Origin: Geosiphon pyriformis uo1
Taxonomy: Eukaryota; Fungi; Glomeromycota
DNA length: 64,000 bases
Reading direction: 5' to 3'
NCBI GenBank assembly: GCA_016748015.1
Contig: JAAOMT010000352.1
Span: 124,001-188,000, forward strand
Part shown: in pieces, positions 7,928 through 63,538 of the stretch
Position numbering within the stretch: position 1 is the first letter of the stretch
How the letters are laid out: each line of letters begins with the position of its first letter
Notes under the pieces: generated by a model
What the model saw: only the letters and a program-made list of their open reading frames with translations
What the model was told of the DNA's origin: nothing
Databases searched by the model: none
Position numbers and translations under genes: made by a program

Positions 7928-7949
7928 TTATTCTCTTATTTTTAATATT

Positions 7950-8640
7950 GAGCTCTATTGAGATCTCCTAATTCTAACTCTCTGTCTTTAAGTATTTCTT
8001 GAACTTTTTTTTCAAGAATTACTTGTGTTATTTTGTTCTGTAATTTTTTGAATTGGACATTGGTTATTTTTTTTATTTGGTTAATAGTAATAGTGTTTAT
8101 TACAAGATTAAATAAGATTTCTAGTTGGTTTTGAAATCCAATTTATAATCAATAAATGGCTTGTGCTTGTGTGGTTAGATTGTTTTTTTCTCACAAATTG
8201 TTTAAGTTGTTGTAAAATTTCTAGATTGAATAATCACTTTGTCTTATCTGTATATAAGTTTTGGATATTTAGATGTTGTTCCAAATAGAAATAACAAAAG
8301 TTTTTTGGAAATTCTTGTATCTACCACTTCCAAGTTTCTTTGGTTAATTCTTAATATAGAGTGACACTTATTGGCTCTTTTATTGCCAATTTTACTTTTA
8401 GAATTATTTTGTTGATGGTATTTTCTGGTTTCTTCTGTACTTTGTATTGGTGTATTTTTTTGGTATTTCTGTATTGAATGGTTTGTTGGTTGATAGTAAT
8501 TTCTATATTTTATTGTTGCATTAATTGAAAAAGTTGTTGTGTTAGCAAGTAAATCTTGTCAGTAATTTTTATTTTTCTGATATCTCCCATTGTATCTATT
8601 ATGTCTTTATATATTCTTTTGGTTGATTAATTTGATGTGT
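7950..8640 (-). pseudogene. Family B ORF-X (post-integrase accessory ORF), disrupted
   Basis: Homologous to 39043-39680; reads ...ELTKETWKW.IQEFPKNFCYFYLEQHLNIQ... Confidence 0.7.
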
Positions 8641-10095: not shown

Positions 10096-10741
10096 TGTTA
10101 CAGTTGAAACACATAGTTTTTATTAATTATTACATGTATTAGCCACTGATGTCATATAATTAGCCACCCTATTTTTAGATAGTGATCATTGACCTGATCA
10201 ATGACCTGACTGTTGACCTGATCATTGACCTGATCATTGACCTGATCAATGACCTGATCATTGACCTGATCATTAACCTGATCATTGACCTGATTGTTGA
10301 CCTGGTCGTTGACCACTTTAGACAGCTATATAAGTGATGATTCTCTCAGCTGTAGAAAGACATGATCAAAGTAACAAAATAAACAATATCAATTACTTCC
10401 TCTCATAATCACTTATTCCCCTTTCCTTACCTTCAAGTATCTACTTGTTGGCATTCACATACCTTATCTTTTCCCCTTCTTGATTTGTATTTGTTAGAAT
10501 TAGCCTGAGAAGCAATTGGCTTGCTCTTGTAATTCATTGAATAAAGAAACGATTGAAAAGTACAACGATACCTGTTATTGATTCTAAGAATTGCCGAGTT
10601 GAGGCATAAAATAATAGCAGCAGTGTTATCTTGTTGACAATCACAGACTATTCCTCTACCTTCAGATTTAAGAAAAGATTAGCGACTGTGATTTTTATGA
10701 GACTGATCACGCACATTGAATTCCTACTTATTCAATTTGCT
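10096..10741 (+). repeat. Family A 5' LTR (3' end lost in the assembly gap)
   Basis: Near-identical to 17201-17774 apart from transitions and tandem-array length. Confidence 0.93.
10190..10314 (+). repeat. 12-bp tandem array (TGACCTGATCAT)n in U3, just upstream of TATATAA
   Basis: About 10 units read directly; TATA-like GCTATATAAG at ~10325. Confidence 0.9.
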
Positions 10742-11134
10742 NNNNNNNNNNNNNNNNNNNNNNNNNNNNNNNNNNNNNNNNNNNNNNNNNNNNNNNNNNN
10801 NNNNNNNNNNNNNNNNNNNNNNNNNNNNNNNNNNNNNNNNNNNNNNNNNNNNNNNNNNNNNNNNNNNNNNNNNNNNNNNNNNNNNNNNNNNNNNNNNNNN
10901 NNNNNNNNNNNNNNNNNNNNNNNNNNNNNNNNNNNNNNNNNNNNNNNNNNNNNNNNNNNNNNNNNNNNNNNNNNNNNNNNNNNNNNNNNNNNNNNNNNNN
11001 NNNNNNNNNNNNNNNNNNNNNNNNNNNNNNNNNNNNNNNNNNNNNNNNNNNNNNNNNNNNNNNNNNNNNNNNNNNNNNNNNNNNNNNNNNNNNNNNNNNN
11101 NNNNNNNNNNNNNNNNNNNNNNNNNNNNNNNNNN
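10742..11134. other. Assembly gap (393 N)
   Basis: Run of N; size is close to the missing LTR end, PBS and leader judged from copy 3750-4100. Confidence 0.99.
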
Positions 11135-12472
11135 TATTACTTTGACCAAGCTTATTTTGAAAACGACTTTGAAGAAAGAAACAACAGTATCAATCAGCTC
11201 TTATATTCTGCAACCTTTGAACAACAGCCCCCTGATTTCGAATATCTGAATCATCAAATCCACATTTGGATTGCTGCCCATCAAGCAACTGAAACTCCCT
11301 TTGAAACAGAAGAAGAAAGCTACCAAACTGCCTCTGTTTTTGATCTTTTATCAAGCGAATCAGACTCGTCTACACAAACAGTTACCCCTGAACCAATGGC
11401 TAATGACCTCATGCAAGCAAACATTCTGGCCACCCTCCAAAGTATACAAACTGCTTTAGGGCAAAGAAACAACACCCCAATATCATTATTTAGAGATGAT
11501 GCACAAGATCCAATTAAATGGTTGAATGACTTTGAAAGAGCCACTACAGCCAATCAATATGATGATGAGTACAAGTTCCAAATTGTTGGTGGCTACTTTC
11601 AAGGATCCCCTGCTATCTGGTTCTTACAAGAAACAGATGCCAATGCCCAGCAATGAATTGTTAGATGGACACCAGCAAATGTGGAAGAAATCAACACTTT
11701 TTTCACTACCCAGTTTGAAAACAAGTTCAGAACCCCAATATTAATATCAAAATGGCATATGGAATTGGAAAAAAAAAACCAAGGTCCCAGTGAAGTTGTA
11801 ACCGAATACGCCAAAGCAATCAGAAAATTAATCAAATGAGTAGACACTGGAAGAAATTGGACAGAAGAGCAGAAAATTCACTCCTTCACAAAAGGATTAA
11901 GAACTGATCTATTGTATGCTCTTTGGCTCCTCCTGGCCCTGAAAAATAATCTCACCATAGATATGGCCATTGAATTAGCACAAAGAATTGAAGACAACCA
12001 AAGGATGCACTTGGGATCCACACTATCAGTTTTTGCTCCTGTTCCTGTCATGGCTTCTGCCCCTCAAATGGCTGCTACTTCTTTTGCCACTTACACTTAA
12101 GATCCAAATGAACAGTTAATAGACAGACTCACAGCAAATCTTGCCTGGTTATTAGAACTCTTAGCCCAAGCAGTCAGTGAAAATCAGCAACTACAAAGAC
12201 CCAGATTTGAACCATGTTTCAATCAGCCCCAGCAACCACCTTATTAAAGACAACAAAATCATGGCCCACCTGTATGTTATCACTGTGGATTAACTGAACA
12301 CTTTTCAAGAGATTGCAACAATCCTCCACCAGTCCCCAGAAACAATGATGCTCAGAACAACAGGATCAACAACAACAATGTGCCCAACCAAAGACCCAAT
12401 CATGCCAACATCAATTTCTTTGGAGAGGATCCCCTAGTTAAAGCCACTGTTTATTAGCCTTTAAACTGGTAG
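11135..12472 (+). pseudogene. gag: Family A gag (capsid-like domain and CCHC zinc knuckle), with premature stops
   Basis: FRDDAQDPIKWLNDFE...; CYHCGLTEHFSRDC at ~12275-12316. Confidence 0.9.
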
Positions 12473-15154
12473 GCGCACCTTCAAAGGGTGAGAGTGCAAG
12501 CCAACCAGAAGAAAACCCCTTTTACATTTTTAACTTAACTGATGATGACCATGACATGGATGAATTAGCAATCAACCTCTCTGAATCCACAAGAAAGAAG
12601 AAAAAAGCCAAAGTTGATTTCGTTCTAGACCCCAATAAAGCTTTTACATCAACTGCTAACAACAATGAGCCCCCAAAAGCCAAAGTTTTCAAGAACTCTC
12701 CAAAGTTAGAACCCCCAGAAATAGTACAAAAATCCGGTTCCTATTCTGTTGTCAAAGACCTTATGAAAACCCCAGCACATATAACCTTTGGCCAATTAAT
12801 GACCCATCCACAATTCAGAAAAGATCTTCGCAAATCCCTGATTCCAAAGAAAAAGACACCCAAAACCAACAAACGCTCTCGCCAAGCTAGACTTGCTGAC
12901 AATAGCAATGTTACTCCTCTAATTTGTAAAGCCCAAGTGGCTGGCTACTTCATTGATTTGATCCTAGACAGTGGATCATCTGTTAGTGTTATTGCCAAAC
13001 ACTTTCTTGAAGCAATTGGCAGAAAAATTGATGAATCATCCACACAACCAATGACCAATGTGCATGGTAATAAGAAAAAAGGGCTTGGCATAGCCAAAGC
13101 TATTCCTGTCTGCATCAATGGCATCAGCATTGAAACTGATATGGAAGTGTCTGAAGCAAAAGAATACACCATCATTGTTGGCAATGAATGGCTCAAGAAA
13201 GCAAAGGCTTTGCTTGATTATGAACTCTGTGAACTAACCATTAGATGTGATGAAAAACCCATTGTGGTTAAGTGTTGCCATTGAACAACTCCCCCAGTAC
13301 CCAAGCAGAGCCCAGAAGAAAATGAATCAGATGAATCAGATGATGAAGAAAGTGAGGAAGAAGAAGAACAAGAAGAACAAAAAAGAAACTGCTGAACTTG
13401 CCTATACCATCTTCACTAGCAATGGCAAACCACTGGATAATGTCAAGGCAAATAAAAAAGGAATTATTGTCAATGGCAAGCTGATCTGCTGGTCTTATTA
13501 TGACATGCTCAGAAGAACCTTTGACAGAAAGCCAGACAAGAAAGCCAAATACAGTTATTGGTAGCATGGTCCTTGTGCCCAGTACTGGTGCAACAAACCA
13601 TTGTATTTTCCTAGCGATGAATGCATGTCCTGCCTGATCTATTACAAAGATTGGGAACTAATCAGCTTGATACCCCGAGAAGAAATAAAAGAAGTCCAAA
13701 AGTCCTTTGAAAACGAACCACCTGAAATCCAATCATTGGTTGTAGAACAAAGAGAACCCTCTTCAGAAAAAAGAAAAGTAGACATTGAAAACCTGCTGGC
13801 TTGAAACAGCCCAGTTATCTCAAAAGAAGGTGAACCTCCTGGACATACACATGTGATACAACACACCATCATCACCAGAGAAACTTGCCCCATCCATTTG
13901 AAGCCCTATCAATCCAACCGGCACAATGATGAGTTTATCAAAAAGGAAATAACCCAAATGAAAACTCTTGGATTCATACAGAAAACCAAGAGTGAATGGG
14001 CATTCCCAGTTGTAGTGGTATTTAAGAAAGGAAGAACCCTATGCTTTTGTGTTGACTATTGCCAATTAAATGTCATTACTGAAAGAGACATGTACCCACT
14101 TCCCAAGATTGATGCAATGCTAGACCAATTCCATGGTGCTACTTTCTTCTCAACCATTGACTTAATTGCTGGATTCTGGCAAGTAGAGATGGATCCAGAA
14201 AGCAGAAAAAAAACTGCCTTCATCACCAAGTATGGTACCTACAAATTCACAGTCATGTTTTTTGGTCTCACAAATGCTCCTCCCACATTTCAACGCTTAA
14301 TGGACAAAGTATTTGAATCAGTAAAAGAAAACTTTGTTCTAGTCTACTTGAACGACATAATGGTATACTCAAAAACATGGGATGAACACCTTGAACATCT
14401 GCAAAAGGTTTTTAACCTCTTTAGAAATGCTGGTCTCAAGATCAATCCAATCAAATCATTCTTTGGACGTCAATTCACCCAGTTTCTTGGCCATCTTATT
14501 ACAAAAGATGGAATCTTCCTTGATCCAGCCAAAATTGAAAAAGTTCAAAACATTAGACAACCAATGAATGTTTATGAACTACGCTCTTTTCTTGGTTTGG
14601 CCTCTTATTATCGCAAGTTTGTCAAGGATTTCTTCAAAATCACTGCTCCTCTCAATCAGCTACTTAGGAAAAACATCAATTATTACTGGGGCACTCATCA
14701 ACAAAAAGCATTTGAAATTCTGAAGGAAAAACTGGTTACAGAACCCATCCTTATGCAACCTAATTTGGATCAATTTTTTATCCTTCACACTGATGCATCT
14801 GGCTATGGACTTGGTGCTGTTTTTTTCCAAAAAGATGAAGATAACAGAGAACACGCCGTAGCATATGCCAGTAAAACTCTCACACCAGTAGAAAGAAACT
14901 ACTCAGTTACTAAGCAGGAATGCTTAGTAGTAGTTTGGGCTATCAGCTACTGGGACAAATATCTTAAGAGTGTGAAATTTTTGGTGGTAACAGATCACCA
15001 AGCTTTGGTTTGGCTACGTAACAAAAGAAACCTGGAACATAAATGGATAACTCGCTGAATACTCCACTTGGATGAATTTGACTATGACATTCAACACCGC
15101 AAAGGAGCTAATCATCAAAACGCCGATGCTCTCTCCAGACTTATTATCCAGTGA
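12460..15154 (+). pseudogene. pol: Family A protease, acidic/Cys-rich linker, RT and RNase H
   Basis: LILDSGS protease motif; RT VDY.QLN, YPLPKID, FGLTNAP, YLND (YLDD in the copy at 29382); RNase H TDASGYG, VTDHQAL, NADALSR, then TGA TAG TAA. Confidence 0.93.
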
Positions 15155-15213
15155 TAGTAAAACCCTCTCAAACCAAACCAACTTAATTATTTGTAACTCC
15201 CCCACAAACAAAC

Positions 15214-16528
15214 ATGATAATGGACTTGGACAACTACTCTGCTTTAATGAAATTTTTGGGTAAAGGACAATATCTGCCAGACTATATTCGACAGCAAAGA
15301 GAACATTTGCACAAACAATCAAATTTCTATTTGATTTGCCAGAACCAGTTATATAAAAGAAATAAAAAAGATCCTGACCACCCCCAGAGAGTTATTAGAT
15401 TTGAAGAAAGAGAAATTGTAATCTACAATATGCACACTGATCTATTAGCTGGACACTTTGGAAAAACAAAAACAATTCAGAAAACTTTAGCTCGCTATTA
15501 TTGGCCTACCTTGGGAAAAGACATTGCTGAATACATCAAAACCTGTAATACCTGCCAAAAAAGAGGAAAACCCAATTGCAAGAAAGATATCCGTCCAATC
15601 TCTGTTGGTTAACCATTTAATAGAATTGGTATAGATGTTGTTGGACCTTTAACAGTAACTTCTGATGGCAACAGATACATTATCACAGCTACCGACTATC
15701 TTACAAAGTGGATAGAAGCAAAAGCCACTCCAGATCAAACAGCAGTCTCAATTGCCAATTTTATTTATGAAGATATTATCTGTCACCACAGCTGCCCCAA
15801 AGAACTTTTATCTGATAAAGAAAGAGCTTTTCTCAGTACACTGGTTGAAGAACTTTGCAGAAAAATGGAAATACGTCATAAACTCTCTTCCCCTTATCAC
15901 TCCCAAACAAATGGCCTAGTAGAACGTTTTAATAGAACACTATGTAAAACCTTAGCCAAAACCAGTGAAGAAACCAACCTATGGGACAAAGTATTGCCTT
16001 CAGCCTTGTTTGCTTACAAAACTGTGAATTATGACATAACAAGTTATGAATCCTTTTATTTGCTCTATGGACGAATGACAACTCTACCAATAGAAACAGA
16101 TATAGAAACAATACCTTTAGAAGAAATAACAATAGGAGATTACAAAGACATTTTGCAAAGAAGACTTGATACCATTCTTGATTCATTAGTAGAAGCACGG
16201 ATAATTGCCTTTGAAAAGATAAAACAGGTTCAAGAGAAGCTCAAAAAGAAAAAGACCTATAAAACACTTTCCTTAAGTGTTGGTAACTTAGTTTTGGAAT
16301 ACCATTCAGACAGAGACAATGTCTATGGTGATAAATTCTCTAGCTGGTGAAAAGGACCTTTTATAGTCAACAAAGTTTTGAACAATGGTTCTTATATCTT
16401 ACAAGATCAATATGGAACAATATTCAGTGATCACCCTGTTTATGGCACATGACTCAAGAAATATTACAAACGACTTGATTGGTTATCTGTTGTGGTAATA
16501 CCGACCCAAATGATCAGCAAAAATTAGA
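15214..16528 (+). pseudogene. Family A integrase, stand-alone ORF with internal stops
   Basis: HTDLLAGH...CNTC, IGIDVVGP, LSDK, NGLVERFN, W.GPF; no chromodomain seen. Confidence 0.92.
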
Positions 16529-16574
16529 TATAAATAAATGCACCATTCCCAAAACAGAGATATCTTCAATCAAC

Positions 16575-17231
16575 ATGAACAATTATTTCCTGGATCAAAA
16601 CATTCAAAACGCTTTCTATACTTTCCATGAGTACTGAATCAAGAACTATCCAAATGCTACTCTGACTATCGGAAAACAAACCACTATAACAGACAACAGT
16701 GGAATTCACACTGTTATTAGACCAAAGAAAACAACTACCAGAAGAGAAAGAATTGGTGGCAAAATGGATAAATACCTGCTGGAAAGCATAACAGCAGTGA
16801 TATTTTTATCTTTCAGCACAATTGGAAAAACAATACAAGAAATCTTGCCCATAAACAAAAACTTGTCATATGGAAGACAACTAGAACTCTATGGTCGTCT
16901 TAGTGAAATCATAGAAGACATGAAGCTCATAAAGAAAACAACTTCAGAGATACAAGTGGAAATTTTGGGCATTATACAATTGGATGTCCCAAGAGTTTTG
17001 ACCATTGCTAGAAGAGCCAGAACTCTAATACAAAGATTTGGTCTCTTGAATACAAAGCTTATTTTGCCTCAAGTACTATATACTCTATTCACAAAAGACT
17101 TCAACAAACTAGTTAGTTTTGAGTTAGACAAAACCCTTCACATAGACTATCCCATAAATAGTTTGATTTCGCCGGAGCTCAATCTCTTTGGAAAGGATGA
17201 TGTTATGGTTGAAATACATAGTTTTTATTAA
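16575..17231 (+). CDS. Family A ORF-X, unknown ~218-aa protein (one TGG>TGA stop at 16635) reading into the 3' LTR
   Basis: ATG 16575 is in frame with ORF 16764-17231; the second copy has TGG at the same codon (~41323). Confidence 0.75.
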
Positions 17232-17866
17232 TTATCACATGTATTAGCCATTGATGTCATATAATTAGCCACCCTATTTTTAGATAGTGATTGTTGACCT
17301 AATCAATAACCTGACTGTTGACCTGATCATTGACCTGGTCGTTGACCATTTTAGACAGCTATATAAGTGATGATTCCCTCAGCTGTAGAAAGACATGATC
17401 AAAGTAACAAAATAAACAATATTAATTACTTCCTCTCATAATCGCTTATTCCCCTTTCCTTACCTTCAAGTATCTACTTGTTGGCATTCACATACCTTAT
17501 CTTTTCCCCTTCTTAATTTGTATTTGTTAGAATTAGCCTAAGAAGCAATTGGCTTGCTCTTGTAATTCATTGAATAAAGAAATGATTGAAAAATACAACG
17601 ATACCTGTTATTGATTCTAAAAATCGCCGAGTTGAGGCATAGAATAATAGCAGCAGTGTTATCTTGTTGACAATCACGGACTATTCCTCTACCTTCAAAT
17701 TTAAGAAAAGATTAGCGACTGTGATTTTTATGAGACTAATCATGCACATTGAATTCCTACTTATTCAATTTGCTCCCTTATTGTAATTCTTTCTTTGTTT
17801 ATTTTCATTACCATACAATACTGTTCTCCCTTGCTATCTGTTAGCTTGTTACTCCAACCTGTAACA
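17201..17866 (+). repeat. Family A 3' LTR
   Basis: TG...CA ends, PPT upstream, 4 array units. Confidence 0.95.
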
Positions 17867-19240: not shown

Positions 19241-19619
19241 TTTATTCTATTCATAGATGGTTTGTGATATTATGTCGATGTATCTACACAGTTGTGAAAA
19301 ATTTAGAATGAAGTTTGGTGGTTGGTTTTCAATTTCAGTGGTTAAATATTCAATGATAGTTCTTTTTGGTATCTCAATAACATTTTTCGTGTTGTTGTAA
19401 ATAGAAATTTTGATGTGACTGTGGTTTTTGGCTGATATGTGTAGATTGACTAATCCAATCCTTCCTGATTTACAAACAGTTGGTTCCACTTCAAAATTTT
19501 GTGCCTGATCTTTTACTTTTTTTTTTATTGTTAACATATGTCTGTTATATGGTAAAATAGAAATTGTTTGACAGATAGAAATAATTTTTTTTTTGTCAAC
19601 AATTTTTTCCTCTGCCATG

Positions 19620-20050
19620 TTAACTGGTACATCTATTCTATCTATGGATCTGAATCCACTTATCTCTCTTGCTGTTATCCCTAATTCTTTCCAGTTTCCT
19701 ACTAATATTAACTGAGCTATTTTAACCAGAGGCAGAAATATTGTCTGTGCTATTTTTTTGTTTGGTTCTATGATGTAGGTCTTTTCTGAATTATTTTGTA
19801 GTATTGCAATAATATTTTCCACATATTTTGTGTCAATTATTTCTCCTCTTATATTAATCTTTTTTTTCACTAAACTACTTCTCAATACTAGTTGAACTAT
19901 TGTTGTTGCTGAAATTTTTAGTGCTATTTTAAGATCAATGCTTGTACACAAGTGTGGTTCTAATTTGATGGCTTTTTTTCTAGGATATCTTAGATCAAAC
20001 CCTGCATTAATATCATGTACATGTTCTAACATGATATTTTCATTATTATC
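19620..20050 (-). CDS. dut: Trimeric dUTPase domain in family B pol
   Basis: Motifs AGFDL, RSSL, G.IID..Y, KIAQ and REISGFRS (RG..GFGS) in order in ORF 19247-20032. Confidence 0.9.
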
Positions 20051-20249
20051 ATTAAACTATTTAAGTTTCTGCTCCTTAGTGAGGTCAGGAAGTGTGATAT
20101 ATTGTTCTAAGTTTGAATTAAAGTTTGAACTGCTGCTATTGTTATTGCTATTTTGAACAGAACTGGAACTGTAGTTGTTATTGTCATTGGGGTTTGAATT
20201 GGAATTGAACTGTGATTTCAATTCCAATGTGCAGCTGCTGATTGGTTTG

Positions 20250-39042: not shown

Positions 39043-39680
39043 ATGGAACAACTAAAAGAATATAAAGACATTGTAGATATGATAAAAGACATCAGAAAAA
39101 TGGAAATTACTAATAATATTCACTAGTACAACAACTTTTTTAACTAATTTAACAACAAGAAATGGAAATTACAATTAATCAACAAATCATCAGATACAAA
39201 AACACCAGAAAAAGATCACAAAATAAAATACAGAGAAAAACAAAAAACACTATTGACAAAATAAACACAACCAAAAGTTATCTAATATTAAGAGTTGACA
39301 ATAGAAACATGAAATTGGTGGACACAACAATTTCCAAGAAACTTTTGTTATTTTCACTTGAGACAACATCTGAATATTCAGGACTTATATACAGATAAAA
39401 CAAAACAATTATTCAACACAACAATACTACAGCAACTTAAACAATTTGTGGAAAAGAACAATCTAATAACACAAGCAAGAACCATCTATTAATTACAAGT
39501 TGGATTTCAAGACTGACCAGAAATCTTACTCAATTCAGCAATAGACACCATTACTATTAACCAAATGAGAAAAATAACTAATGTCCAATTTGAAAAATTA
39601 CAGAACAAGATAATACAAGTAATTCTCAAAAAAGAAGTTCAAGAAATACTTAAAGATAGAGATAGAATTAGGGAATCTTG
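39043..39680 (+). pseudogene. Family B ORF-X, disrupted
   Basis: ATG at 39043; reads FPRNFCYFHLRQHL...QARTIY.LQ...ITINQMRKITNVQFEKL. Confidence 0.72.
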
Positions 39681-39710
39681 ATGGAGCTCAATATTAAAAG
39701 AAAGAAATAA

Positions 39711-40577: not shown

Positions 40578-41262
40578 ACATCATAAACTTTTTTCTCCTT
40601 ATCACTCTCAAACAAATGGCCTAATAGAACATTATATGAAACCTTAGCCAAACCAGTAAAGAAATAAACTTATAAGACAAAGTACTGCCTTCAGCTTTGT
40701 TTGCTTATAGAACTGTAAATTATGACATAACAAATTATGAATTTTTTTATCTGCTTTATAGACATATGACAACACTACCAATAAAAACTAACATTGAAAC
40801 AATACCCTTTAAAAAAATTACAATAGGAAATTATAAAAACATTTTGCAAAAAAGACTTGATACTATTCTTAACTCTTTAGTAGAAGCACAAATAATTGCT
40901 TTTGAAAAGATAAAACAGTTCCAAGAAAAGCTTAAGAAAAAAAACTTATAAATACTTTTCTTAAATATTGATAATTTAGTATTGGAATACTGTTTAAACA
41001 GAGACAATATTTATAATGATAAATTCTCTAGCCAGTAAAAAAGATCTTTTTTAGTCAATAAAGTTTTGAACAATAGTTCTTATATTTTTCAAGATTAATT
41101 TGAAACAATCTTTAATAATTGTTCTGTTCATAGTATATAACTTAAGAAATATTATAAATGATCTGATTGGTTGCCTGTTGTGGTAATATTGACTCAAATA
41201 ATCAGCAAAAATTAAGTATAAATAAATGCATTATTCCCAAAACAAAGATATCTTCAATTGAC

Positions 41263-41888
41263 ATGAATAATTATTTTCTGAATTAAAACATTCAAAATGT
41301 CTTCTATATTTTCTATGAGTATTGGATCAAAAACTATCCAAATACTACTCTGACTATTGGAAAACAGACTACTATAACTGATAACAGTGGAACACATACT
41401 GTTATTAGACCAAAAAAAACCACTACCAGAAGAGAAAAAATTGGTAGCAAAATAGATAAATATCTGTTGGAAAGTATAACAACAGCTATATTTCTATTTT
41501 CCAGCACAATTAGAAAACTACTTTAAGAAATCTTATCTATAGACAAAAACTTGTCATATAGAAAGCAATTAGAACTCTATGGTTGTCTTAGTAAAATTAT
41601 TGAGGACATAAAACTAATAAAAAAAACAACTTTAGAGATACAGACAGAAATTTTGGACATTATACGATTAGATGTCTCAAGAGTTTTAACTATTGCTAAA
41701 AGAGCCAAAACTTTAATACAAAGATTTAATCTCTTAAATATGAAACTCATTTCATCTTAAATATTATATACTTTATTTACCAAAGATTTTAATAAACTAG
41801 TTAGTTTTGAATTAGACAAAACTTTTTAAATAGATTATTCCATGAATAGCTTGATTTTGCCAGAGCTCAATCTCTTTAAAAAGGATAA
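41263..41888 (+). pseudogene. Family A ORF-X, second copy
   Basis: ORF 41551-41760 matches 16860-17070. Confidence 0.8.
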
Positions 41889-42659
41889 TATTATGATTAA
41901 AACTCACATTTTTTATTAGTTATCACATATATTAGCCATTAATATTATATAATTAGCCACCCTATTTTAAATAATAATCATTGATCTGATCAATAACCTG
42001 ACCATTAACCTGACTGTTAACCTAATCATTAATTTGACCATTAACCTAATCAATAACTTGATCATTAACCTAATTATTGATCTGATTATTAATCTAATTA
42101 TTGATCTGATCATTAACCACTTTTGATAACTATATAAACAATAAATTTCTTAACTGTAAAATGGCATGTTAGAATACAAGACATGTTAGAAATCAAAGAA
42201 ATAAAATAACAACTTTTATCTCAATTCTTCTCTTATTGCTAATTTCTTTTTTTCTTATTTTTAAATATCTGAACATCTTAAGATAAAAGATTACTTGTTG
42301 GTTATTTTCTACCTTTTCCTGAAAACATATAATTGTAGTATTTAAAGATTATTGAATAAAATATAACTAAAAAATACATCTAATACCTGATATTAAATTT
42401 TAAAAGCACTGACATGAGGCATAAAATTATATTAGATGTGATTATTTGTTGACAGTACAGATTATTCCTCTACCTTCAGATTCCCCAGTTATTTTTTGAA
42501 AAGAATAGTGACTGAGATATTTTATGAGACTGATTTCATACATTGAATTCATACTCATTCAATTCACTTTTTAAAGTTGAATTCCTTTTGATTTCTTTTA
42601 TCACTCTACAATCTTGTTTTTTTTTGCTATCCATTAGCTTGTTATTTCAACTTATAACA
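41889..42659 (+). repeat. Family A 3' LTR (divergent subfamily)
   Basis: After PPT AAAAAGGATAA; about 11 array units; ends CTTATAACA. Confidence 0.9.
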
Positions 42660-43470: not shown

Positions 43471-45542
43471 AGATATTGGTGAGTATTGTTCTTTATCCAA
43501 AAATTTTATTAAGACAAAATAGTTATCCAAGTCCATTATTGTGTTTGTTTGTAAAGAAGTTACTAATAATTAGATTGGTTTGGTTTAAGAAGGTTGTACT
43601 GTTATTGGATAATAAGTCTAAAGAAAGTGTTAGTGTTTTAATGATTAACTCTTTTGCAATATTAAATATCATAGTCAATTTTATCTAGATAAAATATTTA
43701 ATAAGTTATTCATTTATATTCCAGCTTTTTTTTGTTGCATAGTCAAATCAAGACTTGGTATCTGTTATCACTAGGAATTTTATACTAAGAAAATATTGAT
43801 CTTAATAACTAGTAGTTCAAACTACTATTAAACATTCTTGTTTAGTAATTAAGTAGTTTTTTTCTGCTGGTGTGAAAGATCTATTGACATATGCTATAGC
43901 ATGTTTTCTGTTATCTTCATTTTTTTGTGAAAGAACAGTGATACATTAGTGTACAAAATAAAAAGTTGGTCCAGATCAAGTTGTTTACGAATTGGTTTAG
44001 TAACAAGTTTTTTCTTTAAAGTTTCAAAAGCTTTTTGTTAATAAGTGTCTTAGTAATAGTTAACATTTTTTCTGAGTAGCTGATTAAAAGAAAAAACAAT
44101 TTTGGAGAAATTTGTGATAGTAAGAAGCCAAACCAAGAAAAAAATATAGTTTAGAAATATTTATTAGTTGTCTAATGTTCTGGATCTTTTTAACTTTAGC
44201 TGAATTAAGGAAGATTCTGTTTTTTGTAATAAGATAACCAAAAAACTGGGTGGATTGTTATCCAAAAAAAAATTTGATTGGATTGATCTTGAGACCAGCA
44301 TTTCTAAAGAGGTCAAAAACCTTTTGTAAATGTTTTAAATATTTATTCCAAGTTTTTGAATATACTATTATGTCATCCAAATAGACCAGAACAAAGTTTT
44401 TTTTACTGATTCAAATACTTTGTTCATTAGACATTAAAAAGTGAAAGAGACATTGATAAGACCAAAAAACATGACTGTAAATTCATAGGTGCTGTACTTG
44501 GTAATAAAAGCTGTTTTTTTTCTGCTTTTGGATCTATCTCTACTTGCCAAAATTCAGCAGTTAAGTCAATAGTTGAAAAAAAAGCAGCACTATTGAATTT
44601 GTCTAGCATTGCATCAATCTTGGAAAGTGAGTACATGTTTCTTATAATGATAGTATTTAATTAACAATAGTCAACACAAAAGTGTAGGGTTTTATCTTTC
44701 TTAAATATTACTATAATTAAAAAAGCCTATTCACTTTTGGTTTTTTGTATAAATTCAAGGTTTTTTATTTGGTTTATTTCTTTTTTGATGAACTTATTAT
44801 TGTGTTAATTAACTTGATATGACTTTAAATAGATGAGATAAGTTTCTTTGATGGTAATAATGTGTTGTATCACATGGATTTGTTCAGAAATATCACTTTT
44901 TTTTGAGATAACTGGGCTATTTCTAGCCAACAGATTTTCAATGTCTACTTTTTTTCTTTAGGGGAGGGTTTTTTTTGTTCTACTGTAAATGATTGAATTT
45001 CAGATAATTCATTCTCAAAGAACTTTTGTACTTTTTTTAGTTTTTTTCTTGGTATTAGGCTAATGGATTCTCAATCTTTGTAGTAGATTAAGCAAGATTT
45101 GCATTCATCACTAAGAAAATACAAGAGTTTATTACACTAGCACTAGGCACAAGAGCCATATTATCAATAACTGTATTTTGCTTTTTGTCAGATTTTCTAT
45201 TGAAGGGTTTTCTAAGAATATCATAGTAAAGCCAACAGATTAACTTGTTATTTACAATAATTCTTTCTTTGTTAACTTTAACATTGTCTAGTGACTTGTT
45301 ATTGCTAATAAAAATAGTATAGACAAGTTTAGCAGTTTTTTTTTGTTCTTCTTAATCTTTTTTTTCATCACTTTCTTCATTATTTAATTTATCTAATTGC
45401 TCATTTTCTTGATTTTGCTTGGTTACTGAAAGAGTTGTCCAATAACAATACTTAACCACAATAGACTTTTTATTACATCTGATAATTAGCTTACAAAATT
45501 TATAATCAAAAAGTGCTTTGGCTTTTTTAAATCATTCATTGC
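43471..45542 (-). pseudogene. pol: Family A pol fragment (protease end to integrase start)
   Basis: Reverse complement colinear with 13180-15290; ORF 44427-44636; YLDD near 44375. Confidence 0.9.
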
Positions 45543-46524
45543 TGTTACTGGAGGTTTTTGGTCTCTTTTCTGTAATGTTGTTGATACTTATTTGCTGTGA
45601 ATTCACGTTTTCTGGATGTGGTTGAACCTTCAGTAACTGAATTTATCTTCAAATTATTTCCTATAATTTGAACTGCTGGGGTTATAAGTGGAATGGCCAA
45701 TTCCTTGCCAGTTACTTTATGTAGTTACATTGTAGTAAATGTCAACTCTTTCCCAGGAATTGCTCGTTTGGAAGCTCACTAAAATGTATAGTTACTTTGC
45801 TGTGAAAGTCAATTCTTCTACAGGAATCTCATCTGTAGGCTACCCTAATGATTGTAATAAGAAAAGAAAAGGAAAATAAAAGAAATGTAAACGAAAAATA
45901 GAATTTTGTCAAGAGAAATGTTTTCTATCCAGGCCTGGAATCACTAACAGTTTACTGAAATTGGTAGCTAATCAATTTCGAAATGTTAGTTGGGTTTTGG
46001 GGATTTTCCAAGTACAATAATTAAAGAATTTGGTTTTTTGAATTATTTGATATTTATTTCTTTTTGTGTGTGTAAGAATAGTCCTAAGTGATAAGTCTAA
46101 AGTAAGATACATTTTCTCAAAGAGAGAAGCTTTTCTTTTATACAACTTGTTATAACACTATTCTATGAACTTGAACTTTGCTATTTTCTACAATTTCACT
46201 GAACTAAAGATACATTTCGGCGAACTACAAGTTATTTCTGCAAACTTATTAGATATTTCAGTGAACTATCAATTATTTCAGTGAATTTCTATAAATTTTG
46301 GCGAACTTTTGAATGTTACATAGTTTGGGGTATTGCATAATTGATTATCGTAATTAAGTTATATTTGTGTTGTGTACAATTTGGGTTATTAATTAAATGA
46401 TAATTTCGGACATTCTTTACTAATGTAATAAGTGATAATTTGAAACGATAATATATGCTAATTAATGATAGGAATTATAAGATAGTTTCATGCTAAATGA
46501 TATCTCTAATTTCGTCTGGTAACA
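45543..46524 (-). repeat. Family C 3' LTR
   Basis: TGTTAC ends, PPT GAGGAGGAGG adjacent (46528-46537), homologous to 62599-63538; ~21-bp ATTTCNNNGAAC repeats at 46190-46310. Confidence 0.9.
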
Positions 46525-47212
46525 TAACCTCCTCCTCAAGACTGAGCTCCATCAAAGTCCAAGTACTGTCTGTTATTTCCAGATAATAATCCAAAATTAT
46601 TGAAGAAATTTGGTCTGAAAATTGTTGAAATTTCAGTTCTGTAAGCTTTCCAATGTATTGAATCTTCAAAGGTTGAAAAATTGGGTTTTGTAGTATGTTT
46701 TCACAGGTGTGGAATAGGTCATAAAGTCTAAGAGCAGCTCTAAGCCTGTAGCGACTGTTTGTTGATCCAGCTGTTGTCTTGAATTCGTTGTGGAGTTGTT
46801 TCTGAATAGCTTCTTTTGTGAAGTTTGCTGTTGTAAGTTCCAGTTTCTGTTCATAGAGTGTTTTTCCAATGTGAAAATATCTATAGATTGGAGGATATTC
46901 AGTGTTTTCCTCATTGAGACACAGTTGAAGTTTTTGTTGAATTGTAGCATTTGGTGGAATACTAATCGGAGTGAGCATTAGGTTTTCTCTTAAAGCAAGC
47001 TTTAAAAGTTCTGGCAAATAAATTCCAGTATAACTTCTTGTGTTCTTTTTATACGGGTGATATTTTTGTGAATTTGGGGCTAAATTTGTAACTACTTTTG
47101 TTTGGGTATAATTTATGTGGTTTCCAGTAACAGTAATGGATAATTTGGGTATTGTTTTTAAAGCTAACATTAGTTTTTGGGATAATTGTTGAATGTTTTG
47201 AGGAATAGTCAT
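46493..47212 (-). CDS. Family C ORF-X, intact unknown ~239-aa protein
   Basis: Open frame between the integrase stop and the LTR; YRYFHIG, AALRLYDLF, IGKLTELKFQQF. Confidence 0.8.
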   Translation of the reverse strand: MTIPQNIQQLSQKLMLALKTIPKLSITVTGNHINYTQTKVVTNLAPNSQKYHPYKKNTRSYTGIYLPELLKLALRENLMLTPISIPPNATIQQKLQLCLNEENTEYPPIYRYFHIGKTLYEQKLELTTANFTKEAIQKQLHNEFKTTAGSTNSRYRLRAALRLYDLFHTCENILQNPIFQPLKIQYIGKLTELKFQQFSDQISSIILDYYLEITDSTWTLMELSLEEEVMLPDEIRDII

Positions 47213-47330
47213 TATAAGCAATTAAAAAACTAAAAAAATTATTTTTGGTGTATGAGTTTTTATGTTATTTTTGTTTTGTTTTTTGTAAGATTGTTTTCTA
47301 AATTATAAGAGAATAACTAGTAAAATTAAA

Positions 47331-48716
47331 TTAAGTGTTCAGGTTGGAAGATTGTTCAATGACAACTATTGGTTCTAAGTTTTGGGGAATATCTTTGGGA
47401 CTGACCAAAGGGGAATGTGTACCAATTTGTGGAATTAATGGTTCAGGATTGTTTCTGGAATGATAGTGTTTCAAATGATCTCTATGTACAACTTTTGCTA
47501 GGATTTTGTCATCAAGTCTTAACTTGTATGATAAATTGCCTAGGACTTCATGGATAAAGAATGGTCTATCCCATTTATTTTCAAATTTTCCACTCCATTG
47601 TTTTTCAGCTTTAGTTCTGTGTAAAAGAACTTTGTTTCCAATTTTGAATTTATTGGTGACTGAAGGCAATTTGTCATTATGCTGTTCTTTTTGTTGAGCT
47701 TGGGAGTATTCAATATGGGTGGCTGCTATTCGTCGTTTTCCTTCCAATGTGCTAAGCAGAGTGTAGGCTCTTTGCTAAAGCGTTTCTTGGAAATTGTTTT
47801 CATCAATCGGTTGTGCTGGGTATGTTTCCACTGTGAAACTAATTGGTAACGTTGCCATCCTTTCATAAGTTAAATCAAATGGTGTGTGTTTTGTGGTATC
47901 TTGTTTTAATGTCCTATATGCTAGTAATACTGGTGGAATAAAGAGATCCCATTCTTGCTCAAAATTGGTTAAGACTTTGGCTAATGACTCACACAATGTT
48001 TTGTTAAAACGTTCTACAAGTCCATTTGTTTGTGGATGGTAGAGCAAAGACAGAGGTCTTTTAACATTAAATTGTTCACAAATTTTTTGTATCAGGTTGT
48101 TCACAAAGTGTGTTCCCTGATCAGATAAAAGTTCAATTGGACATTCATGTCTACAAATAATGTTTTTGTAGATGAAATTTGCTACTGATTTTGCATTTAC
48201 TTGTTGAATGGCTCTGGCTTCAGACCATTTAGTAAGATAGTTTACAGCTACTGCAATATAATGGTTTCCTTGAGTGGTAATAGATAGTGGTCCGACTAAA
48301 TCGATACCAACTCTGTCAAAAGGCTGTCCAACTTTGATTGAATTTAAAGATTCTGTAGGGCGAGTTCCTCCTTTTCTTTGACAACTATCACAAGATTCGA
48401 CATATTCGTGAATGTCGTTTCTCATTCGAGGCCAAAAGTAGTATTCTAATGTTTTTTGGGTGGTGCTATCTTTTCTGAAGTGTGCTGATGAAGAATCTGA
48501 GTGCATATTGTATAAAATGGTCTCTTTTTCTTGTTCTTGTATTAATCTGAGTGGTTTGGTTGGGTTTTTGAAATTTCGATGATAGATAATGTTGTTGTGT
48601 AGAAAATATTGTTTGGCTTGTTGTTGTAACTGATGTTTTTCATCTGGGGACCAATCTGTTGGGATTGTTAATGTCTCCAAATATTGTTTGAGATTGTTGT
48701 AGTTTTTGGGGTTCAT
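47331..48716 (-). CDS. Family C integrase, stand-alone ORF (one internal stop at 47775)
   Basis: Begins MNPKNY; HSDSSSAH...CDSC, VGIDLVGP, LSDQGTHF, NGLVERFN, KWDRPF. Confidence 0.92.
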
Positions 48717-48765
48717 TGTTTGTTGTTTTGATGCTGTTAATTCAAATGGATGTTGGTTTTATTTT

Positions 48766-48965
48766 CTAATCTTGTCTCATTCTTGAGAGACAATCAACGT
48801 TGGTGTGGAGTTTTCCTGGTTTGTGGTGTACAATGTATCGGTAATTAGCTAAAAATCCTGTCCATTGGGTTTGTTTTGCGTTCAGCTGGGTGTTTTTGTT
48901 TTAAAGCCATTTAAGTCCAATATTATCAGTGATAATATCAAATTTTTTGGGTCTGAGGTAAAAGT
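48766..48965 (-). pseudogene. pol: Family C RNase H C-terminus
   Basis: FDIITDNIGLKWL...HKPGKLHTNVDCLSRMRQD*. Confidence 0.85.
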
Positions 48966-51900
48966 TGCACTATTCACAGTTGGGAACTGAAGATCTTAAC
49001 AGTGAAACACTTGCCATTTACTTCCAAGAACTTAATTTTAACATTATCAAGTACTGTGAAGAAACATATTCAGTACAGTCTCAATACTCTATTGACTTTG
49101 AATCAAAAACAGAAACAAGTAACAAAGGCAAACAAAAAGTGAAACAATACTCAAAAACCACCCCAAATACTCCAATACTACCAAAGACAACTGCCAAACA
49201 CTTGCAAACACCTGAACAAAGAACCAGTGTCAAATTACTACTTTCTATTATGCCATTTCCAATTTCACTTGTTTAATCACAAACATCAAATTCACCACTC
49301 AACTGTTTCTTCAGACCAGAAGATTTTCAGTCACCTAGAAATCCTACTCAACAGCAGAAACCCATATCAACAAGCACCAATATTATTGAGTACTTACAGG
49401 AAATTGGAAGTAATCATTCAGAGAACTTGGAAAGTGAAAAAACTGAATCAAAATAAGAAGAAACCACAGAAAACAAAGAAGAAATGGCAACCACTTATAT
49501 TGCAAAGATTCCCAAATTTACTGGTGAAGATAATGATACCAGTCCTCAAGAATGGCTTGTCAAAGTTCAAAAAACAGGAGATGCAAATGGTTGGATTGCA
49601 GCAAGAATGCTCAAAGCAATTCCATACTTTCTCCAAGAAACTGCAGGAGAATGATTTGAAAACTTGGAAGAACCATTTGAAAATTGGCAAGCATTCAAAG
49701 ATGCTTTCTTACAACAATTTATTGACAACAACACTTCTATCACTTTCCACAATCACTTTCACAATATCAAACAAGAAACATCTAAAACTGTTATGACCTA
49801 TCTTGAAAGATTTAACAAACTCCTTCAATGAATTCGACAATTGGAAACCAATGACTACTATTTTAATGCTCAGATTCTGGATCAGTTTATAGCAGAGTTA
49901 AAAGACAAATTGATTAAGAAAGTTTGTTTACATGCACCAACAGACTTAGTAACTGTCATTAGACATGCAAAAAATTATGAAATAGCAATGGAAGAAGCAA
50001 ACCACACCAAACTTGTCAACCTAGCAATTGGAGAAACCAGCTCAGCAGCTGAAAAAAAAATAGACCAACTCACAAAGAAAGTTGAAAGCTACTTTACAAA
50101 CCAACAACAACAGCAACAACAACCACAAAGATATTAACCCCCACAAAGACACCATCAAAACAATTTTGGATCACCATCCAACAACCAACCTCAAAATTGT
50201 CATTATTGTGGAATTTCAAAACACTGGAAACGAGATTGTAGGAAATTGCAAAGAGACCAGCAAAACAGAAGTAATCAACATTACTTTTCACCACAACAAT
50301 TTTATTACCAACCTCCACCACCAATATATTACTCACCAAGACCACAAAATCAAAACAATTACTATCAACCAGCTCTACAATCAATGCAACAACAATATTA
50401 GCAATCTTTACCAATTCAGCAATATCAAACACCACCCACCCAACAATATCAAGTACTAGCCAGAAAATTGGTTCAATATAACCAATTCACACCCCAAAAT
50501 CAATTTCAGAATAACAACAATAGAACCAACCCAAATCACCAGTTGGTTCTCCGAAATTCTGGCCAGCAAAGACCCAACCACTACCACACTCAATCCAGTT
50601 ATCTTACAATGTCTAAAGAATCGAATTTTTAACAATCTGCACTTTCTGAAGGTGAAGTTGCAGCACCAAAATTAAACCCTTCCAACTATACTATTCCACT
50701 AGCCCAAATTGTCCAAAATGCCAACCTTTTAGATATATTCTTATTTGAATTTGAAGCCAATGAATCACCATTTTTGCTTAGCAATACAGCAGTTAATGAG
50801 CAAAAAGCTATTATGGTCATGTATACTAAAGCTACAGTAGAAGGAAAGCCCATTCAATTAATTCTAGACAGTGGATCAACTGGAAGTATTATCACTTACC
50901 AATTAATGCAACAGCTTCAAAAAACGATTGACAGACCAGCTCAAACTATAATTGTTACTGCAGATGGTATGAAAAAGACCCCAGTAGGAGAAATTGACAA
51001 TTTCTCATTTACCATTAATGGAATCACCATTTTAGTCAAAATTCTAGTCATGGATGCATTCCAATACCAAGCTCTTGTCAAAAATGATTGGCTTCTCAAG
51101 GCCAATGCAAAATTAGATTGGGAAACCCAGGAATTGAAGATTTCATACCAAAGATAATATATTATAGTACCTGCTACTTGTGGAACTTTCAACAAACGAT
51201 CAGAAAAAGCCCCAGTATTTGAATTTAAAGAGGAAAAAGAAATGCCACTTATTGAAACCTACATGGCTCTTGGATTAACATCCAATTGGGCTGAAGAAAC
51301 AGAACAGAAGATCTTTGAGGGATCAAGAGGATGGAGAAAAGTTAGATACTCTACACCAGAACCACAGAAACAACCACCTTACATCTCACTCAAATGCAAA
51401 GACTGCAATAAAAAACTTTTATTAATAGAAGCATGTATTTCTCCAGAAGAGAAATATGAAACTCGCACCTGTTACTACTGTAAAGCATGCCATAGAAAAC
51501 GATTTGAACACCCCAAAAGAAGTGGAAAATGGGACAACACTTCTTGTCTTACATGTAGAGATATGTTACCAGAAGAATACAACTGGATTGATGTTGCAAT
51601 GAGAGGAGGAGTATGTAATTAAACCTGCCAATATGCTCTATCAATTTCGAAAAAAGTCAGAAGAGAAACACCTTTTGATGCAGCATATAACAGTGCTCTC
51701 AACAAACTCTACCACTATCCTCATGATACTGAAATGATTTTTGATTTAGCAATAACATTAATCAATAGAGCTACCCAAAAAGATGTCCGCCAAATGAAAG
51801 AAGCTGAATACATTAAGTATATCATAGAATTAGCTGGATTTGATTATGAAAATAAAGTGGAAACATACCACCAAATTGCAAGCCACACATATTCAACCCA

Positions 51901-52072
51901 AGAAGCTCAAATTCAACAATTAGAGTAAATGAATATTCAATTGTGTGAAGAATGCATTATGCCTTGTGATGACAAATGGTGTTCAGAATGCTATACTCTT
52001 AGCATTCCTCTACCCAGTGAAAATAACCAAGAAGAAATTGAATTTGGAAGACCAGAAACAAAAGAAGAAATT
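48966..52072 (+). pseudogene. gag: gag, protease and Cys-rich region of a third family (probably C), one reading frame
   Basis: MATTYIAKIPKFTGED, CHYCGISKHWKRDC knuckle, LILDSGS, CKDC/YYCKAC/CLTC; assignment to family C is inferred. Confidence 0.8.
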
Positions 52073-54124
52073 GCTGGTGCAAAGTTCAGTAAAAGCATCC
52101 CAAGTAGATAGTAACTGCTTTAGTATTTTCTTGGTGAAAGTATTGGCTAAGCAGTTGATACTATTATTGTTACTAAAATATTTTAAAAACTTAAGTTTAA
52201 ACATGTTGAAATCTTGGAATTTATTTGTTAAGCTTTAATACCACAAGTTAATAGTATTCTAAAAAAAGTATGAAATGACTTATAGTGCTTTGGTGTCATT
52301 TTATTTATTGGCTGCAATAGCTTTTTCTTTATTATTTAGCTATGCTTGTGTGTTATTCTCTTTGCCAGTAAATTTTTCAATCTTGACAATTGGTACATAT
52401 GCCATTGGTACTAATTGTTGTGGTTGCTGTGAGTTTTAATAATGGAAAATAGAATTTGGGACTACTGGTGGATTGATTCAGATAACTGGAGGTAAGTTTT
52501 GCTAAATAATAGGGGCGGAATTTAAATTAATTAGGTTTTGTTGAGCCTGCACTATCAGAGTTAATATTTCCAGGTTTTTGAAGATTGAGTTTTAAGTATT
52601 AATTTCTCGATCACTATTTTTTTCCTCAAAGTTAGTTATTTTTCAAGGACTAATATTGCCAAAATCTGGTTGTGATAATAGTAATTGATGTTCTGATAGC
52701 ATGGTTGATCACAAATTAAATTCCTTAAAATAATCACTATAGGTTCTTAATAGTTTAGCTTTTTTTTGTTTACTTTGAAATGGAATTTTAGCTAATGGTG
52801 TTTTCATGTTTGCTATAAATACATCTGTTAATGTTATGTTAATAGTACTTTCAAGTATGTGATAATATGATAAATTAATTGGTGAATTGACTCTTGGTTT
52901 TTTTTAAGTAGGTGGTTGTATTAGTGTTAATGTTTCTGCTGGTGTTTGTAGTCTTCTTTTTCTTTTGTCTGCAAAGGTAATAGAAAATTTTTGTTTGGTG
53001 TACTTTTTAATTTCCCTGTTTATTTCTGTGATTAGGAATACAAATAGATAGTTTTGTGATAGGCTGATGTTTTGAAGTAGTTCATTAAAGAAATTGTTAA
53101 AAGCAAATTCTGGATCTCTTTGATCTTTTAAGTAGTATGCAATTTGTTCATTAACATAACAATTGAAAGCTGATTCTGTTGGCCAACTATTATTTGTTAA
53201 TTCAAGATGATTTTGGTAATGTTGGAATAAAAATTTTGCAAATTCCAAGTGGTTTGTCTCTATTTTTTCTGATTCTGTTACTGTTTTAAATGCTTGCTGT
53301 TGGTGCTGGTTCTTTGCTAAATTATATTTTACAGAGAGCATCAAATGTTATAAGTAATTATTTGGGTTTAAAAACAAATAACAAACCTGTAACTTGGTGC
53401 TTAATAGCTAATCTGATTGGTATTATCTGAAGGTTTTGGTATCTAAAAATTTTGGTTAAGTCTTTTGTATAATGGACAGAAATTCACTAGTAATTTTATT
53501 TGTTGTTTTCTAGAATCACAATTCCATCAAACTTTTTTCTCAGCATAATGGCTGGTAATTTTCCTAGTAAGTTATTCTCAATCCTTGAATGTTTTACCCT
53601 TATTTCTGGGTCTTTTACCAGTTACTTTAACATTGATAACTTCACACATTTAATCTTTTAATCAATTAGTAAATAATAAACAAACAAAAAAAAATAAAAA
53701 AAAATAAAAAAATTAAGCCAAGACAAGAAAGAGTTAGTATTCTGTCAATAACTGTAATCAAAAGCTATTGGTTCAGTGTAATTAAGTATTAGTAACTATT
53801 AACATGAGTTGTTAATAATAGAAAAATAGATTGTAATAATAACAAGTATTTTATTGATAATTAATGTTTTTACTTCAAGTTATAGAATACTATTATAAGA
53901 AGAGATGGATAAAAAATTAGAATTGAGTGTTCTAAACTAAGAATTCTAGCTGGAAATTCTGTTTTTTCTGCTTCTAATGCTACTGCTATATATACATAAA
54001 TTTCAGTGTACAAAATTCCTTGAATTCCTCAATTTTTTGGCCAGGAATCCTAGAATTCTACTTTTACTACATCTCATTTTAATTGACTACTTTGTGTACT
54101 AATATATATATTCTATAAGTAACA
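52073..54124 (-). mobile_element. Family B 5' fragment (LTR 53346-54124, PBS, partial gag)
   Basis: LTR homology, PBS TTTGATGCTCTCTGT, ORF 52904-53344. Confidence 0.88.
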
Positions 54125-62305: not shown

Positions 62306-62598
62306 ACATATATCTATAGAAATCTAATTATCAGAAAAAATCATAATATTAAAAAAAACTAAAACACACTCAAAAGCCAATACCATGGCCTGCAACTTAG
62401 CCAAAGTTGACAAAAGCAAACCATAAACTTTTACTTTTATGCCCAAATCTAGATTAGAAAAGTAAGCAACAGCATCACCAATTATATTAGAAGACTCAAA
62501 ATTTTTAACAGAACTATTAATGTAAATTGAAATCTTGGACAATAAATCATTTTTTAATTAAAAATAAATAACACAAAAGCCATCTACATTGAACACAC
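62306..62598 (-). pseudogene. RNase HI fragment, probably from a LINE
   Basis: IYINSS (YTDGS), STLAKLQAM (AEL.A), IFSDN (.SDS); cellular/LINE-type rather than Ty3-type RNase H. Confidence 0.72.
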
Positions 62599-63538
62599 TG
62601 TTATCAGAGGTTTTTGGTCTCTTTTCTTAAATGTTGTTAGTGCTTATTTGTTGTTAATTCACATTTTCTGAAAGCTAATAAATTTTTGATAACTGAATTT
62701 ATCTTCAAATTATCTCTTATAATTTAAACTGTTAGAGTTATATATAGAATGACCAATTCTATGCCAGTTATTTTATGTAGTTATATTGTAGTAAATATCA
62801 ACTCTTTCTCAAGAATTGCTTATCTAGAAGCTTACTAAAAATGTATAGTTACTTTGCTATAAAAGTTAATTTCTTTACAGAAATCTTATATCTAGACTAT
62901 TTTAATAATTATAATAAAAAAAATAAAAAAAAATAAAAAAAATGTAAAGAAAATAGAATTTTGTTAAAAGAATCAATTCTGGTCCAGGTTTGGAATAATT
63001 AATGTTTTATTGAAATTGGTAGCTAATTAATTTCAAAATATTAGTTGTGTTTAAGAAAATTTCAAGCATAATAATTAAGGATTTAAATTTTTAAATTTTT
63101 ATTTTTATTTGATTTGTAAAGATAATTTTAAGAAAGATAGATTTAAAGTAAAATATATTTTCTCAAAGAGTGAAGTTCTTCTTTTATACAATTTGTTATA
63201 ATACTAGTTTTTGAACTTGTACTTTTTTCTTTACTATTATTTCAGTAAATTAAAGATATATTTTAATAAATTATGAGTTATTTTTGCAAACTATTAATTA
63301 TTTCAGTAAATTATCAATTATTTTGGCAAATTTTTGAATATTAAATGGTTCGAAATATTGTGTAATTTGATCATTTTAATTTCTATAATACAAATTGGAT
63401 TATTAATTAAATAATAATATTTGATAATTTGATTAAATAATAAGTAATACTTGAATTAATAATAATATATGCTAATTAATAATAAGAATTATAAGGGTAA
63501 TTTCATGTTATTTAATAGCTAAAATTCTATTGATAACA
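62599..63538 (-). repeat. Family C LTR, solo-like, non-matching flanks
   Basis: Homologous to 45543-46524; no PBS or PPT next to it; flanks ACAC/ATGA. Confidence 0.88.

Follow-up and report, generated by a model that had tools for sequence, protein, structure and literature searches.

Additional open reading frames (ORFs) between pol and the 3' long terminal repeat (LTR) of Ty3/Gypsy retrotransposons are a known kind of gene (PMC7264820): they have been annotated in fungal Gypsy elements as an 'add. ORF' of unknown function (PMC2864245), and the ORF3s of bdelloids are a further case (PMC5408684). In errantiviruses and in plant elements of the Athila and Bagy2 type, the same place in the element is taken by Env or an env-like ORF3. 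Here, we describe a gene in this slot, ORF-X, in a window of 64,000 nucleotides from the glomeromycete Geosiphon pyriformis uo1 (contig JAAOMT010000352.1, positions 124,001 to 188,000 of the forward strand; all coordinates below count from the first letter of the window), where it follows the integrase in Ty3/Gypsy families that we name A, B and C. ORF-X seems to be a new, undescribed protein family in a known slot: no description was found in the accessible portions of the literature searched, which included PMC11952901 and bioRxiv 10.1101/2021.03.30.436303, the Geosiphon genome papers, their supplements, Repbase, Dfam and the authors' libraries being outside the scope of that search.

The likeness to the sense additional ORFs described previously (PMC7264820, PMC2864245) extends to position, orientation and occurrence in the majority of a family's copies, and both are conserved nearly as well as the other proteins of their elements and have no known function. 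Going by their descriptions, sense ORFs treated in PMC7264820 are env-like and carry membrane segments, whereas ORF-X has none; moreover, ORF-X has 210-240 amino acids and overlaps the polypurine tract and the LTR. It also differs from Env and env-like ORF3 in being much shorter, in having no hydrophobic segment and in matching no family. An initial reading of the window made from its letters alone (hereafter the sequence-only reading) had called the protein not env-like, and rightly so, because the peak hydropathy of 19-residue windows on the Kyte-Doolittle scale lies between 0.30 and 1.33 in nine of nine ORF-X proteins, with no window above 1.33.

A reading frame between integrase and LTR

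The intact copy belongs to family C, where it runs on the minus strand of the window from an ATG at 47212 to a stop at 46493 and encodes 239 amino acids; the intact frame proposed by the sequence-only reading is thus confirmed, and its "sense-strand" label holds relative to the integrase of the same element (47331..48758, minus strand) but not relative to the window. This protein is up to 92-94% identical to annotated hypothetical proteins of G. pyriformis. The spacer that separates its ATG from the pol stop (47213..47330, minus strand, 118 nt) is AT-rich and contains, about 20 nt upstream of the ATG, a T-rich run ending in AG, which is a possible splice acceptor judging by its letters. The plus-strand family A counterparts are at 16575..17231 (copy 1, 218 codons, one in-frame stop) and 41263..41919 (copy 2, several stops), and the family B copies at approximately 39070..39697 (plus strand, stops and frameshifts) and 7942..8602 (minus strand, stops and one frameshift). 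The coordinates first proposed agree with these for the first family A copy and differ slightly for the other three. The gene is a separate frame on the pol strand, with its own ATG 40-320 nt past the pol stop.

The gene had been placed between integrase and 3' LTR, and it does follow the integrase, but in families C and A it continues across the polypurine tract into the LTR, where it ends after 32 nt (C) or 31 nt (A), i.e., the 3' LTR of family C (45543..46524, minus strand, about 980 bp, TGTTAC...GTAACA) and, for the first family A copy, the LTR at 17201-17866. The family B copies terminate just short of the tract. In family C, the end of the gene includes a GAGCTCA motif together with the tract (46525..46549, minus strand). 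The motif, GAGCTCA(A/G), precedes the 3' LTR by about 25 nt in every family (46542-46549 on the minus strand, 17175, 41863, 39684, and 7948-7955 on the minus strand) and also in L001, the contig of a metagenome protein presented below (around 3092). Since families A and C translate it in one frame and family B in another, the motif is a conserved cis-element, which perhaps serves to prime the plus strand or is recognised by integrase, and for the same reason the acidic tail of the C and A proteins is likely an incidental by-product of the polypurine tract.

ORF-X is a genuine gene held by purifying selection. We re-placed the same substitutions at random on the same bases (3000 permutations) and found that the two family A copies, which differ at 112 sites over 218 codons, show 51 amino-acid changes where 68.5 are expected (0 of 3000 permutations as low). 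Two family B segments also show fewer changes than expected (45 vs 55.4, P 0.001, and 33 vs 43.9, P 0.0003). Of the transversions, which had been suggested as the measure, 10 of 13 are at third positions in family A; taken alone, they give no significance in family B. Four of five pol segments show constraint like that of ORF-X and one does not. These measures of DNA constraint within families concern A and B pairs, family C being present in a single copy in the window; the identity of its ORF-X to that of L001 is 0.45/0.60/0.42 by codon position, with saturated synonymous sites. The gene also exists in many copies, with 194 (C), 131 (A) and 13 (B) protein clusters. That the frames are chance openings, or are kept by cis-elements, is hardly credible: the final 10-20 codons are plainly shaped by the polypurine tract and the LTR, but the codon-position constraint extends along the whole ORF, is absent from shifted frames and from five of six LTR pseudo-frames (the sixth gives P 0.04), and is accompanied by protein-level conservation between families and by a confident predicted fold.

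Homology among families

The close protein matches listed all come from G. pyriformis, which accounts for 120 of the 120 listed for family C (194 found), 120 of the 120 listed for family A (131 found) and 13 of 13 for family B. The ORF-X proteins of families B and C are homologous along their whole length (164 columns in hhalign, with a probability of 75% and a pairwise E of 2.4e-5), and a profile built from both retrieved 110 proteins from 1.84 billion representatives. The source is known for 30 of them, i.e., 27 from G. pyriformis and three metagenome proteins (P0292, P0295, P0356). The profile adds three further Geosiphon families (P0286, P0305/P0309 and P0304 types), and the further families bridge B and C. 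L001, the contig that encodes P0295, carries a distant element of the same layout: an integrase 57% identical to that of family C is followed by a gap of 316 nt and an ORF-X 34% identical to its family C counterpart, the motif and the tract recur, and ORF-X stops 32 nt after an LTR-like sequence begins; the C-terminus of P0292 is the same tract-encoded peptide. Some six families thus have homologous ORF-X proteins, with 20-35% identity between them.

The position of family A is less straightforward. The sequence-only reading had the gene shared by three families on the basis of three spaced motifs, and the motifs are indeed present in each of A, B and C. The comparison of profiles that it proposed joins B to C but leaves A without significance with standard tools: hhalign gives E 0.21 for A-C, 0.32 for A-B and 0.4-0.53 against deep profiles, and the best BLAST pair is the first family A copy against L001 (E 0.052, full length, 24%), two other pairs having E>5. 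There is no family A member among the 110 profile matches, and a first home-made profile score for A was not significant. These results are what one would expect if the family A gene were unrelated and had been captured separately, with a similar size and at the same position, yet we regard this as unlikely. A second home-made score, local and centred, gives z 4.6-5.4 for A, higher than each of 150 block shuffles whether the tail is included or not, while six unrelated element proteins used as a control give z -0.6 to 1.5. The path of this alignment is collinear from end to end, taking in the N-terminal helix-strand motif, the basic linker and the core, and A has the same length, position and overlap with the LTR. 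The integrase of family A is also the most distant (41-45% vs 49-57% for the others), and its ORF-X is therefore expected to be the most distant too. Relying on the home-made score together with the common position, length and layout, we consider that the family A gene is probably akin to the ORF-X of B and C.

Predicted structure and possible functions

Structure prediction gives a soluble protein with a helical bundle as its confidently modelled core (residues ~85-215), and an N-terminal helix and beta-hairpin of low confidence. Between them, a basic linker is predicted to be disordered and is a possible nuclear signal; within the modelled bundle, a conserved G-x-x-N turn runs into a basic helix (residues 153-167). 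Family searches of the ORF-X proteins returned no significant named family, and fold searches no significant match. The proposal of a lineage-specific, soluble, helical accessory protein thus stands in its descriptive part (the protein is lineage-restricted, soluble, mostly helical and under selection), but the roles suggested with it, such as nucleic-acid binder, trans-activator or anti-silencing factor, stay conjectural, as no family or fold match was significant.

We tentatively favour a role in which ORF-X binds the DNA of its own element through a helix-turn-helix (HTH)-like core and promotes its transcription against host silencing. The VANC proteins of Arabidopsis VANDAL transposons, which are fast-evolving, element-specific, DNA-binding accessory proteins with anti-silencing activity, are the model for this mechanism, but they belong to plant DNA transposons and have no sequence or fold link to ORF-X. 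The protein would be translated by reinitiation or from a separate RNA, either shorter or spliced, as its own ATG and its distance from the pol stop suggest; it would enter the nucleus through the basic linker, bind nucleic acid through the G-x-x-N turn and the basic helix, find its DNA target in the LTR, and favour the expression of the cognate element through a pro-transcription or anti-silencing effect. Divergence faster than that of the integrase fits family-specific recognition without proving it.

Several observations weigh against this role. No pointer to DNA binding reaches significance. The fold comparison gave no significant match, all rows lying within the tool's stated noise, and the likeness to HTH domains of the ParB/Spo0J and sigma factor type is among these weak rows. 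ORF-X shows a weak likeness to ParB/Spo0J-type HTH domains and to DUF1016_N (PF17761), the N-terminal domain of bacterial YhcG, in a collinear pattern of three helices that spans some 76 columns and in the case of DUF1016_N includes an aromatic-x-I-G, a G-K turn and a helix ending in R-x-Y-x-x-F; unlike them, it has an extra N-terminal module and no nuclease partner domain, and its scores fall under every threshold. DUF1016_N reaches 16.8 bits for the window protein against a Pfam gathering threshold of 32.8, and 2 of 58 members at E<=1. With a profile of only 11 bacterial sequences, hhalign gives it a probability of 9% (with a pairwise E of 0.0035, better than any of 39 block shuffles) and the home-made score z 3.9, and an implausible match to FtsQ outscores it (E 0.00046, 14 of 58 members, all of family C). 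Few residues are invariant across families, and ORF-X diverges faster than the integrase (34% vs 57%). Finally, the copies of the elements are heavily CpG-depleted, so any protection by ORF-X is incomplete. It is a long shot that ORF-X is a bacterial or phage HTH of the DUF1016_N/ParB type which a Gypsy lineage of early-branching Glomeromycotina captured, and that it acts as a family-specific anti-silencing DNA binder.

Small size, solubility and basic patches would also suit a helper that binds the unspliced genomic RNA for export, stabilisation or packaging, in the manner of CERV for Cer1 or Rev for lentiviruses, and so would a separate ORF behind pol with a candidate splice acceptor upstream in family C. 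CERV of Caenorhabditis elegans Cer1 is a precedent from an LTR retrotransposon and, like ORF-X, a novel soluble protein that is neither Gag nor Pol, but it is the product of a spliced mRNA with a demonstrated role in RNA export (PMC10309623). Neither sequence nor fold linked ORF-X to CERV or Rev, no comparison having been aimed at CERV, and the existing weak fold pointers lead to DNA-binding domains, which makes an RNA helper rather improbable. ORF-X could instead be a protein adaptor that binds no nucleic acid and either tethers the integration complex to chromatin or binds a protein of the host's defence, for instance an Argonaute or a methyltransferase, and blocks it. The integrase of family C, with its zinc-binding, core and SH3-like C-terminal domains and one in-frame stop, terminates soon after the SH3-like domain and has no Chromo match at E<=1, hence lacks this mark of chromoviruses; this leaves room for a tether, and fast divergence in a protein that keeps its fold and hydrophobic pattern is in line with an interface shaped by an arms race. 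By eye, however, the basic helix and the turn are conserved as suits nucleic-acid binding, and we hold the adaptor to be doubtful. We rank DNA binding over both the RNA helper and the adaptor.

Genomic setting and significance

The window is AT-rich (GC 20-41%) and filled with nested, decayed Ty3/Gypsy elements. Family A shows the complete order of gag, protease, reverse transcriptase, RNase H and integrase (11135-16540); family B has the same order from gag to integrase, interrupted by an insertion; and of family C the 3' part is present, beginning in the end of RNase H (~48975) and reaching through the LTR. The LTRs are of the TG...CA type with a polypurine tract directly upstream. A second copy of the family C LTR, 75% identical, is at 62598-63526. 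Both C-type LTRs adjoin, at 45542 and 63526-63538, family A pol fragments that start near the same family A position (~13181-13187) in opposite arrangements, possibly through a single insertion rearranged later. The element at 10096-17866 is a near-complete member of family A. Parts of its LTRs look young (95% over 487 bp), the LTR contains a 12-bp tandem array, and an assembly gap is filled with N at 10742-11134. Yet another Gypsy family is represented by a piece of gag and protease (48962-52093, plus strand), which lies head to head with the family C fragment and has no second copy in the window. Family B-type elements carry a dUTPase domain between protease and reverse transcriptase (19247-20056, minus strand, Pfam E 9e-15), the domain search giving no dUTPase match in the family A elements of the window; dUTPase is already known from fungal Gypsy elements (PMC2864245). 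A primer-binding-site-like sequence starting with TGGTGCT occurs just inside several B-type LTR ends (24650, 31652, 53346, 55279).

CpG is strongly depleted in the window (observed/expected 0.11), which fits methylation-driven decay because such decay is expected to cause this loss. The differences between the two family A copies (15874-17231 vs 40579-41919) are for the most part C-to-T and G-to-A changes that run in one direction, and the majority of them lie outside CpG (CpA 85, CpT 72, CpC 32, CpG 11); plain CpG deamination does not explain them well.

Relatives of G. pyriformis methylate transposons and produce small RNAs against them. LTR elements nevertheless make up 41.2% of the G. pyriformis genome (PMC11952901). 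Many annotated proteins of this species are ORF-X fused to pieces of gag, integrase, dUTPase or non-LTR elements, chimeras that are likely gene-prediction artefacts over nested elements. For annotation, hundreds of G. pyriformis 'hypothetical proteins' (the 194 + 131 + 13 clusters) are retrotransposon ORFs and not host genes. ORF-X also represents a protein family that has no name, and whose core is predicted with confidence and matches no fold. If the capture of a bacterial or phage HTH were true, it would be the first factor of this kind from a retrotransposon of fungi and would help explain how LTR elements came to cover 41% of the Geosiphon genome. As an accessory gene kept by at least five to six Gypsy families, ORF-X is a concrete candidate for how these elements persist.
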